Positions 6,001 through 9,000 of a stretch of 22,963 nt of DNA are shown piece after piece; positions within the stretch are counted from its first letter, which is position 1, and each line of letters opens with the position of its first letter. This DNA is from a virus (lineage: Duplodnaviria > Heunggongvirae > Uroviricota > Caudoviricetes): positions 1 through 22,963 of IMG/VR virus record IMGVR_UViG_2802429249_000003; one strand, written 5' to 3'. The position numbers are program-made.

Positions 6001-9000
6001 TACCAGGCGAGCAGTGAATTCAGGACAGAGCTGTGCGACGACAATGATGCTGTCTCGCTTACCTTGTTCTCCTTCAAACAGGTAATGCTCATATTGAACT
6101 TTAAAACCTAAGTTATTGATTTTCTCGGAAACAGCCATTGGCGGTTTCCGGATGATGTTTTTAGCAACCAGGCGTTCGATACTACGTTTAACATCTGAGT
6201 GCTGACTACCCACCAGCTCTGCGATCTCAACGCTGGTCATGGATGCTTTATCGTTAAAAATTGCGGTGTTCACTGATACCTCCTTACGGATAAATTATTG
6301 GGATCACGGTTCAGCACTTCTCAGTTACGCGCTTTTTCCAGAGCCATGCATCCCTATAAGCAGCCTCGATCCCATGGCATATCCGCATATCCTGAAACCA
6401 ATGCTTCCGTTCCCATATCTGCCAAGATCGAGGTTTAATGCGATCGCTGATGCCTGTGATGGAGAACATAGCCAGTACGGGTACTTTCAGGCGTCTTCCT
6501 TTCTGGATATGCTTACGCCAGTCATTGCGAAGATTTGCCCGCATGCTGAAATAAGCACCAACAGGAAATGCAACAAGAAATGCCGCTACCTGAACAAAAA
6601 GGAGTCGCCAGAAATTATGGGAATCATCTGGAGTGAGTTTGTTCTTCTGTTCAATACCAACCCGCGCCTTGTTACCTTCATCTGGACGGTTAGTGCTTTT
6701 GGACTTGGCGCCTGGCTCGGACACTGGCTTGCCAAAAATCGAGATAAGCGGAAAGAGTTCAATGCCGTCGCTGATGAATTGTTCCTGATCCTTGACGCCT
6801 TCCGCGAGGGTTGCCGAGACGGAAAACGGGATATGCCACATATATCCAGAGACGATTTCAGAAGACTGCGCCCTCACCTGAGCAGCAGACAAGCACGAAG
6901 TTACCAACAAGCCGTAGATAACTTTTTTAACGCACTGAAAGCTAGTGAGCTCTATGAAGACAGGCGGATTGTTCCGGTTATCAAAACTCCCGCAGAAATT
7001 CTTCCCAGCCTTAACACGCTGATTAAGTTTCTGAAGCATCGCTAAGCACTGTGACATATCACACCTCCGATTGCTTACCTTGCCCCTCTTCTGTGTGCGC
7101 TAAATCAGGATGGATATACGGGATACTTGGATCCAGATGGCAGAGAATAGCTACGTCCTCTGGAACACCTCTCGTTTTCCACTTTCCAACACCTTGACTG
7201 CCACGAGGCTTTCCTTTCTTTGGGAACCTGCGGCCAATAGCGGCATTGGTTTTAAATTGAGTTTTTAATATTTCATAAAGGGTCATTCTTTAGTCTCACA
7301 CCGGATACTCTGTTATCCAAGAATGTTAAACGCGAGAACCCAAAGTATCAAGAAATTCTGTTACTTTAGTATCAGCAGCCATGAAAGGAGAAGAAAAATG
7401 AAATCTTTAGGTGAACGCCTCATCAACGCACGACAAAAAGCTGGGTTAACGCAAGATGCGTTGGCTAAAAAAGCAGGGGTCACCAGAGTTGCAATCAGTA
7501 AAGCCGAGCAAGGCCTTACAAAAAGTTTCAACGGTGACACCCTTTTTAAAGTCGCAGCTGCACTGCAGTGTTCACCGCAGTGGCTTCAGAGCGGAGATGA
7601 AAAAGATAAGCATTGGGAAAATAATGTTAAGAGCTGCCCACAGAGAGACACAGCACACTCTTACCCTGTAATTAACTGGGTTCAGGCAGGATTATTCGCA
7701 ACTGCTGGTGATGACTACAACATGTATGATCAGGATAACTGGAGGCATTCTGTAAAATACGCTGGTGAGAGGGGGTTCTGGCTGGAAGTGCACGGAGACT
7801 CAATGACTTCGCCCGTAGGAATAACATTTCCTGAAGGAATGTCGATCCTTGTCAACCCAGATAAAGAAGTTTTTTCAGGGTGTTACGTCATCGCCAGAAA
7901 AAAATCCACCAATGAAGCAACATTCAAAAAATATATTTCTGAAATGGGAAAGGCGTTTCTAAAGCCCCTTAATCCACAATATCCAATCATAGAAATGGAC
8001 AATGATTGCGAAATAGTAGGTGTTGTAGTTGATGCCAGGTGGGATATTTTCTGACCAGACTCAAAACACAAAAAGAAACCAAAGTATCAAAAATCACTTG
8101 CCACACCTTGATACCTTAGTTACCATAAAACAAAGTTCGTAACTGAGGTATCATCTCATGATCAATAAAGCTACAACTCTTGACTGTCTTGAAGAACTGA
8201 AAAACCTCGGCAGTCTCATTACACTAATAGCCAAAGCAACGCCAGATGCTACGCTCTCTGGCGATATCGAGTCATGCGCAGGACTGGCATGGGATATGAC
8301 AAATAGCATATCCAGAAAGCTATCGTCAGCAATGCTTTTACAGAACAAAAATTCTGCAATCAACAACCGTCTTCGCACCCAACGCGAAGCCTGCGGCTTA
8401 ACAACCGCCGAACTCGCCAGGCTGCTCGATCTCGATGAAGAAATTATCATCCAGTGGGAGAGCGGAGAGTATGAACCAACCATCAGTATGCTTATCCCAC
8501 TGGCAAATATTCTTGGCTGCGATCCGATGTGGCTGTTAACCGGTAAACCAACCGCAGGAGATACTTGCGCATGAAAAAGTTCAAAAACATAACCGTTCTC
8601 CATGTTGATGACTTTGATTATACAAACCCGGACCTTCTCCCGGAGGTTGTAAAAGCAATAGATGTTGCCGATATAGTGATTAGAGGAAAGAGAATTGTCA
8701 AAAACAGGCTCGCATGCACTTCAGGAGCAATGACAGAAACAACCTCACAGCAAGATAATTACGAAGGCATTTGTCTGGAGCCTGATTCATTTGCGGTAAA
8801 TGTTTATCATTTATTGCATGCAACACAGGTATTACATATGTCCAGTAATCACGAAACGAAAATACTCGGCAGCGAAATTCTGAATTTTGCATGTGAGTAT
8901 GCAAAAGCTGCTGCCGAAAAAGAATTAGCGCAATAACAACAAATATGCTCTGAACGTTTATTACGGTTTTATCGCCGGGGATTGTTACAACCTTTATTCA

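Follow-up and report, generated by a model that had tools for sequence, protein, structure and literature searches.

We analysed a 22,963-nucleotide (nt) stretch of DNA, here called the window (positions 1 to 22,963 of the IMG/VR virus record IMGVR_UViG_2802429249_000003, Caudoviricetes), which covers the immunity and early region of a lambdoid, Shiga-toxin-phage-like prophage and contains two long antiparallel open reading frames (ORFs), named X and Y in this work. Gene X (minus strand, 6311-7057, 248 amino acids plus stop, ATG at 7057-7055) is an early-operon ORF that starts 1 nt past the stop codon of a cro-like gene. Gene Y (plus strand, 6617-7048, 142 amino acids plus stop at 7046-7048) lies wholly inside X, antisense to its first half. 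Both are probably genuine genes nested on opposite strands, the X frame being retained across Y so that ribosomes reach the conserved C-terminal part of X, designated the X-core. Comparison of homologous loci indicates that both frames are conserved as open frames, that selection acts on opposite frames in the two halves of X, that the initiation signals are conserved and that the two genes have independent ancestries. X would be translated from codon 1, Y would be expressed in lysogens, and the Y and X transcripts would interfere with each other. An initial annotation of the locus had left two alternatives, an artefactual ORF or an antisense-encoded moron embedded in the early operon; our results support the embedded moron and speak against the artefact. 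They further suggest that X is protein-like in its C-terminal 101 codons only, that its N-terminal 146 codons are kept free of stops and are otherwise unconstrained, and that two ancestral genes are involved.

Geometry of the two frames and the chance of a double opening

X and Y are in exact codon register, position 1 of one frame being position 3 of the other, so that antisense stops arise solely from the codons TTA, CTA and TCA. From the amino-acid content of each frame and the codon frequencies in 20 neighbouring prophage genes (TTA or CTA for 16% of Leu, TCA for 19% of Ser), the opposite frame is expected to be open by chance in about 1% of cases (0.0099 and 0.0078). The initial remark that long antiparallel open frames are uncommon therefore holds, and for one sequence picked post hoc a chance of this size is not decisive. 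The decisive evidence for the double opening is, in our assessment, comparative: the same ~142 codons are open in both directions in all 24 distinct diverged homologous sequences, and also in genomes of Proteus, Xenorhabdus, Yersinia and Enterobacter.

The window holds a second long antiparallel pair, at 8151-8603 on the minus strand (150 amino acids) and 8158-8574 on the plus strand (138 amino acids), overlapping by ~420 bp in a different relative frame. Its plus-strand ORF is an annotated helix-turn-helix (HTH) protein, and its minus-strand ORF gains one or two stops in the diverged homologues L011 and L006. Because of these stops the latter behaves as an ordinary shadow ORF, the opening of which is lost upon divergence, and it serves as an internal contrast to X/Y, where both frames are preserved.

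Conservation and context of gene Y

Sequence conservation identifies Y as a genuine protein-coding gene, whose product is a predicted membrane-anchored member of an old, uncharacterised family. An exhaustive phmmer search against 1.84 billion representative proteins retrieved 64 homologues at E<=1e-3, nearly all of 100-172 amino acids and about two thirds of 120-145 amino acids; most of the matches align over most of the query, with spans of residues 1-142 and E-values down to 1e-56. An earlier word-indexed protein search had returned an identical match only, which by itself would point to an artefact, and the exhaustive search overturned that. Over 6617-7045, nine homologues vary most at codon position 3, less at position 1 and least at position 2, with a Nei-Gojobori omega of 0.13-0.5, and the ratio of nonsynonymous to synonymous differences (pN/pS) amounts to 0.55 for the 24 sequences together and to 0.33 when only unsaturated pairs are counted. 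Within the clade of loci that carry the overlap, Y has a conserved start, a conserved stop and a conserved length (137-149 amino acids). Typical of the family are a hydrophobic helix at the N terminus, the motif GHWLAxxRD(K/R)RKEFNxxAD and a basic C terminus with the end (K/H)R. The Y of the window carries FGLGAWLGHWLAKNRDKRKEFNAVADE, the motif being aligned in 26 family members, and it has the C-terminal family end LLxFxx(H/R)(R/K), in which ...FLKHR is conserved. The wider family thus confirms the start at 6617, the length of 142 amino acids and the membrane anchor that had been proposed for the plus-strand product.

These data bear directly on the view embodied in RefSeq, that only X is a gene and that the plus ORF is a shadow ORF, open since an exact-register antisense frame is stop-poor. 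The NCBI Prokaryotic Genome Annotation Pipeline (PGAP) does list the minus ORF alone on RefSeq E. coli chromosomes (WP_136759491, 243 amino acids, start at Met7), the identical match from the word-indexed search with the plus frame agrees with such a view, and exact-register antisense frames are generally stop-poor (10.1101/724807). It is nevertheless extremely improbable in the face of purifying selection that acts over 6617-7045 in the plus frame and not in the minus frame, of the conserved Y start, stop and length, and of the 64 homologues, some of which are stand-alone genes at loci with no X present (L076-L080).

In two of these loci, L079 and L080, the stand-alone Y gene directly follows a cI-like HTH gene, whose strand it shares, and is divergent from cro. 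In L076 (1760-3336) it comes right after a Pycsar-type pair, a defence-island context; the pair consists of a PycTM effector and a gene whose match to the nucleotide cyclases of Pfam is weak and below threshold (E 8.5e-4). From these positions, downstream of cI-like repressors or beside defence genes, we infer a lysogeny-type role for Y, which, judged by position, would be a lysogeny-type or defence-type accessory gene (moron) transcribed in the cI direction.

Searches of Y, X and the X-core against Pfam, NCBIfam and PADLOC gave no match, a PDB sequence search with profiles of Y and the X-core gave nothing significant, and neither Y nor X matched in sequence the known anti-phage or superinfection-exclusion families (Rex, Sie, PADLOC systems). 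Weak matches were obtained to four PHROGs families of unknown function (E 1.5e-13 to 5e-3), phrog_13469 through four members and the three others through one each, and the homologues of Y are labelled hypothetical in their source records. Of the profile searches suggested at the outset, those against the family libraries were uninformative. AlphaFold modelled Y, as a single sequence, with low confidence (predicted local distance difference test, pLDDT, 53). A scan of genome contigs with close Y sequences found nothing, and a narrower alignment later recovered genome loci.

The C-terminal domain of X

The X-core (X codons 148-248; minus strand, 6314-6616) comprises a membrane helix (~6548-6616) followed by a basic, Trp-rich C-terminal region. 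The comparisons identify it as a real coding domain, which occurs elsewhere as an independent gene. Residues 148-248 of the window X align with 10 type-A homologues and with the stand-alone proteins P0083-P0086, and they conform to the conserved pattern, a ...FP.G.Y.S(M) helix followed by RRDW..H.PKG...WQIWEQR.WF.DMK...AYRD.W.WK. In type A the X-frame omega over the X-core is 0.09-0.39 and that of the plus frame ~1, and pN/pS in the X frame is ~0.3. Type B, of ~70 amino acids, is found in Morganella, Providencia and Proteus-type loci and has an X-frame omega of 0.05-0.23. The frame that shows the coding pattern of codon-position variation switches at about X codons 133-147.

Stand-alone X-core proteins, retrieved by profile search, have 96-120 amino acids and come from metagenomic prophages and from Serratia marcescens. 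Their start, a GTG preceded by GGAGG or GAGGAGG, lies shortly ahead of the helix. At these loci cro is followed by the X-core gene, then by cII(CP76)/YdaT and the replication genes, and Y is absent. The X-core of the window has no such start and Shine-Dalgarno sequence before its helix; X codons 115-167 contain no ATG, GTG or TTG and no Shine-Dalgarno sequence.

Opposite the X-core, the plus-strand frame that contains Y continues upstream, so that in full it spans 6239-7045 (268 amino acids). The extension (6239-6616) appears to be non-coding. It is open in the lineage of the window only, and in eight of nine type-A homologues a stop interrupts the frame shortly before the ATG at 6617; because of these stops and the plus-frame omega of ~1, both the 268-amino-acid ORF and the 223-amino-acid model of L13 in the Stx2e phage phiP27 are too long.

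The open X frame across Y

A protein search with X found eight diverged full-length homologues (36-62% identity, 243-289 amino acids). The gene for each of them belongs to the early operon of a prophage and has cro or one other early gene directly ahead of it. The assignment of the minus-strand ORF to the early operon was thus borne out. Viewed alone, these homologues would suggest that X is real and the plus ORF a shadow. This is countered by the presence at every locus of an exact-register antisense frame, open over 146-202 codons, with a protein-like and well conserved translation, an ATG antisense to a conserved His codon and an end four codons inside X.

The part of X that is the exact antisense of Y (codons 6-147; minus strand, 6617-7042) is open and unconstrained at the amino-acid level. 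Over Y the X frame has an omega of 0.64-1.6 in the nine homologues, and its pN/pS over the Y codons is 0.91 (1.02 in unsaturated pairs), compared with 0.97 in a non-coding control, the antisense of the X-core. Purifying selection within the overlap was accordingly detected for Y (0.33-0.55) and not for X (0.91-1.02). Selection on this part of X seems to act on the continuity of the frame only and not on the amino acids. Among the 560 Leu and Ser codons of Y (372 Leu, 188 Ser) in the 24 distinct sequences, whose pairwise identity falls to 26% with a median of 39%, none is TTA, CTA or TCA. The probability of this absence of antisense stops is ~1e-15 when the count is restricted to the 185 distinct column-codon states. 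AGA and AGG are frequent in Y, and the absence is therefore not a general avoidance of rare codons. Taken one by one, all three thirds of the overlap show the depletion, also the one closest to the start of X (57 codons), and the two other antisense frames of Y contain 7-18 stops. By this codon usage, the X frame is selectively kept open.

Loci were also gathered by tblastn with the Y protein, independently of gene calls, from viral contigs, metagenomes and one genome per species. Wherever the Y of these loci reaches 37% identity to that of the window, it is free of antisense stops and the X frame extends over 215-295 codons. Genomes with the stop-free pair include Providencia alcalifaciens, Proteus hauseri, Xenorhabdus koppenhoeferi, Yersinia massiliensis, Morganella morganii and Enterobacter hormaechei, and it is well supported by these alignments that both frames are kept open across at least three families of Enterobacterales. 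The initial annotation had proposed that homologues with a single open frame would settle which ORF is real; the clade with the overlap retains both. By comparison, five stand-alone viral Y loci use TTA, CTA or TCA for 31 of 119 Leu and Ser codons (26%), with 4-8 antisense stops each, and 13 of 16 distant genome loci have 2-10 antisense stops.

Three distant Y homologues of 24-29% identity (L075, 2947-3387; L105, from a Burkholderiaceae metagenome-assembled genome, and L110, both at ~3001-3400) have a stop-free exact-register antisense frame of 147-172 codons. Each of these frames continues beyond the start of Y and there encodes a short hydrophobic peptide. Such an opening has a chance of 3-11% per locus, and its presence at three of ~20 distant loci may be a sign of additional nested partners of independent origin.

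Three other explanations of the open X frame were weighed on this evidence. According to the first, Y and a short X-core are the only genes, the minus frame over Y is untranslated, the X-core starts internally or non-canonically, and the opening is coincidental or has a non-translational cause. A pN/pS of ~1 and very low AlphaFold confidence for the N-terminal part of X (pLDDT 41 for X overall and below 50 for residues 1-143), the stand-alone X-core genes elsewhere, and a GTG or ATG at X codons ~63 and ~114 in most sequences would agree with it. The frame-specific absence of stops throughout the overlap, the stops in the other two antisense frames and in the antisense of stand-alone Y relatives, and the Shine-Dalgarno sequence and ATG conserved at the cro stop argue against it. 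Furthermore, no ATG, GTG or TTG at X codons 8-147 is common to all sequences, neither of the two candidate internal starts is preceded by a Shine-Dalgarno sequence, and the stop-free stretch reaches upstream of both. We consider this explanation improbable.

The second explanation is true dual coding, in which the N-terminal half of X would be a functional domain, for instance a periplasmic loop preceded by a first membrane span or signal peptide (residues ~40-62), and both proteins would be constrained. A segment of the form KK-hydrophobic-(Q)V(R/K/N)A|(Q/E) does occur at the same place in all 24 X sequences, together with the X-core helix it would fit a topology following the positive-inside rule, and around the start of Y some 75 nt do not vary at any of the three codon positions. 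The segment was nevertheless rejected as evidence of function: it mirrors a conserved polar helix of Y, and the antisenses of stand-alone Y genes, used as controls, hold windows of comparable hydrophobicity at other positions. With an X-frame pN/pS in the overlap that is indistinguishable from the non-coding control and no confident AlphaFold fold, dual coding is unlikely.

The third explanation holds that the X frame is kept open only against transcriptional polarity, through Rho termination or pairing with the Y mRNA, and that its fusion to the X-core is incidental. The module sits between cro and cII, where lambda has its Rho-dependent terminator tR1; no sequence constraint accompanies the opening of the frame, and X ends 37 nt ahead of the next early gene. 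This explanation leaves unaccounted for the constant in-frame continuity into a conserved X-core that lacks a start of its own, and protection from polarity is compatible with the nested-gene reading as an added benefit rather than exclusive of it. Taken as the sole cause, it is very unlikely.

Initiation and transcription signals

Both ORFs were found as initially described, X with GGAGG (minus strand, 7068-7064) 6 nt upstream of its ATG and Y with AAGGAG (plus strand, 6599-6604) 12 nt upstream of its ATG, a long spacing. Initiation signals are thus present for both. That of X lies within the last cro codons, the cro stop (7061-7059) being 1 nt from the X ATG. The junction G(G)AGG-(C/T)GTGA(C/T)-ATG, whose TGA terminates the gene ahead of X, is conserved in type-A loci, also in those in which a gene other than cro precedes X, and the spacing from G(G)AGG to the ATG at the cro stop is 6-7 nt. 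The AAGGAG of Y is present in most type-A homologues; it is also the antisense of Leu-Leu codons in the X helix, so that its conservation is not assignable to one strand.

A conserved element, CATGCTGA(A/T)ATAA, lies ~60 nt upstream of Y. It doubles as the antisense of the Y-F-S-M codons of the X-core, and its meaning as a promoter is therefore not interpretable. The sequence TTGCGAAGATTTGC (plus strand, 6525-6538), ~80 nt upstream of Y and directed toward cI, has the TTGC-N6-TTGC pattern of lambda CII sites. It was rejected as a CII-activated PRE-type promoter, the pattern occurring twice in the window against 1.56 copies expected and its first TTGC being missing in the homologues. An Rfam scan of 5500-8200 gave no match.

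Origin of the overlap and recombination

Y and the X-core appear to be two independent ancestral genes, and since each is found separately elsewhere, the direction of overprinting can be read. In the phiP27-like clade, as the comparison of loci indicates, Y lies antisense between cro and the X-core, the start that belonged to the X-core itself has been lost, and the X frame spans all of Y. One stand-alone X-core begins MGNELTPEDMHKFW, from which it follows that the ELTPDDxH segment belongs to the X-core and that the clade-specific N-terminal extension of Y (MGIIWSEF...) overwrites it. Overprinting between Y and the X-core is, on this comparison, reciprocal.

The ~75 nt at 6599-6673 are near-invariant, with a diversity of 0.04-0.11 at all three codon positions in a sliding window; they span the Y Shine-Dalgarno sequence, its start and its first ~19 codons, that is, X codons ~129-153. 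The pair L006-L007 has near-identical X-cores and very different Y genes, with a synonymous divergence (dS) of 1.47 for Y and 0.17 for the X-core. Such discordant divergence of Y and the X-core in the same pairs means that Y types and X-core types reassort, and the invariant stretch is likely a recombination breakpoint or joint. The Y of L014 is chimeric.

Proposed mechanism

In the mechanism that we favour as probable, Y would be a lysogeny-type membrane-protein gene seated antisense between cro and the X-core, and the functional portion of X would be its C-terminal 101 residues, a membrane helix with a basic tail. Ribosomes would start at the Shine-Dalgarno sequence and ATG at the cro stop, read the antisense of Y and arrive at the X-core; the first 146 residues of X would be translated on the way, as an extension that may drift freely in sequence. 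One DNA would then be under dual selection, which preserves the amino acids of Y and forbids the Y-synonymous codons TTA, CTA and TCA as stops in X. As an added benefit, the early transcript would possibly be kept translated across the 430-nt antisense insert.

Several points weigh against this mechanism. Its support comes from sequence comparison of both strands, and the family-library and structure-sequence searches gave no function-bearing match for Y or the X-core. The 12-nt spacing of the Y Shine-Dalgarno sequence is sub-optimal, and consensus scans of the window and five homologous loci detected no consistent sigma-70 promoter upstream of Y and no terminator downstream. The GTG or ATG at X codon ~63 is present in eight of nine sequences and that at codon ~114 in seven of nine, so that lineage-specific internal starts are possible. 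The hydrophobic segment at X residues ~40-62, present in 24 of 24 sequences, is signal-peptide-like, and the near-neutral pN/pS of the N-terminal part of X is a measure that is biased in overlapping frames and is compatible with weak amino-acid constraint.

A bolder extension, in which the locus forms a built-in toggle between lysogeny and lysis, is doubtful. In the prophage state the Y mRNA, complementary to the first 430 nt of the X mRNA, would run on into anti-cro and silence leaky early transcription. Upon induction, ribosomes coupled from cro and RNA polymerase would cross the antisense of Y, stop Y and make X. The N-terminal half of X would be a domain that is just arising de novo, and its residues ~40-62 would be a signal or membrane segment in the making. 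If this were true, few natural examples of reciprocal overprinting would be clearer, with residues 1 to ~16 of Y lying over the juxtamembrane segment of the X-core and the first 146 residues of X over Y.

The prophage locus and its distribution

Between 983 and 11918 the window is 96% identical to phiP27, the match covering 44% of the window, and near-identical copies of the window prophage occur in five complete E. coli genomes. The X/Y module is found in 5 of 5426 complete E. coli genomes, all copies being identical, and no diverged X/Y copy was found among these 5426 genomes.

The cro-like gene (minus strand, 7059-7286, 75 amino acids, L12 of phiP27), directly upstream of X, matches phrog_4749 (E=2e-47), and the cro equivalents at homologous loci match Pfam YdaS_toxin and P22_Cro. 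Divergent from cro and on the same strand as Y is the gene for a cI-like LexA/S24 repressor (plus strand, 7323-8054; start at 7398 according to the NCBI pipeline), assigned by Pfam Peptidase_S24 and HTH_3 and by the RefSeq annotation. The next early-operon gene past X encodes a Rha/Ant-type regulator (minus strand, 5566-6273; Pfam Phage_pRha and phrog_63) and is followed on the minus strand by an Ash/Rha protein gene and then by replication genes. In sister E. coli prophages with the same cro and rha genes, the cro-rha interval carries another small plus-strand gene instead of X/Y, at 2794-3087 (+) in L002 and 2794-3045 (+) in L003, encoding a 97-amino-acid hypothetical protein or a bssS-family protein. 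Since the plus-strand genes in this interval differ, the slot repeatedly takes cargo opposed to the early operon. At ~19000-21500, past the integrase end of the prophage, the G+C content of the window is 0.32-0.37 compared with 0.45-0.52 elsewhere, and this stretch may be an unrelated, horizontally acquired segment.

Loci of this type are annotated inconsistently, with an over-long plus-strand gene in phiP27, the minus frame alone in RefSeq E. coli and the Y frame in NCBI Morganella records (AUT99885.1); as a consequence, the E. coli-type Y protein is nearly absent from protein databases.

Comparison with known systems

Long antiparallel overlaps in bacteria and phages are disputed and few are established; large surveys report that most long antisense ORFs show no protein-level selection (10.1101/724807; PMC7457138). 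Against this background X/Y stands, on strong comparative evidence, as a rare and well-supported antiparallel gene overlap. It is a clean case with internal controls, in which amino acids are selected on one strand and mere translatability on the other, and it bears on the way in which phages can place accessory genes within essential operons and leave these intact. No description of the X/Y locus came up in literature searches. The closest annotated counterpart, L13 of phiP27 (P27p13, NP_543065.1; NC_003356 7104-7775, plus frame), is identical in sequence to Y and in the same frame. Unlike Y as delimited here, L13 is annotated as a protein of 223 amino acids of unknown function, from an upstream ATG that the homologues do not support, and the X frame is unannotated in phiP27.

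In the antisense pairs of E. coli O157:H7 studied by the Scherer, Neuhaus and Ardern groups, the embedded ORF is reportedly young, taxonomically restricted and weakly constrained, with support that comes mainly from expression data. Embedded antisense genes reported in this strain include laoB (PMC5810103, PMC9927249; reviewed in PMC7457138). X/Y resembles these pairs in having an ORF fully embedded antisense, one overprinted frame, and only one of two genes called by annotation pipelines; it differs in that the embedded gene Y is old and well conserved, the overprinted part is the N-terminal half of the host ORF, and the support is comparative.

A survey of 929 genomes found many long antisense ORFs that avoid stops without negative selection and judged them unlikely to encode essential proteins, an example being the ORF opposite dnaK, once Pfam PF10712, which avoids stops without amino-acid constraint (10.1101/724807). 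The N-terminal part of X is similar, since it avoids stops in the exact antisense frame and has a Ka/Ks without negative selection. Unlike the dnaK-antisense ORF, it has an evident reason to be free of stops, since it links a conserved start to a conserved and independently attested domain, the X-core, and the stop-free stretch vanishes in Y relatives that have no X.

Y is further comparable to lambda rexA/rexB, sieB and other morons, as a small membrane-protein gene of the immunity and early region oriented as cI, and its stand-alone relatives lie directly downstream of the repressor, as rex does. Unlike Rex and Sie proteins, to which it has no sequence similarity, Y is encoded in this clade inside the lytic early operon on the opposite strand and not in the cI operon, and unlike for rex and sieB, the promoter and terminator scans for Y gave no consistent site. 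The antisense RNAs of lambda (PRE and oop) and P22 (sar) are not known to encode a conserved protein over the overlap. In geometry, a Y transcript directed toward cI would match the lambda PRE transcript, which is antisense through cro, oop RNA, which is antisense to cII, and P22 sar, and antisense regulation by the Y transcript is conceivable by this analogy.

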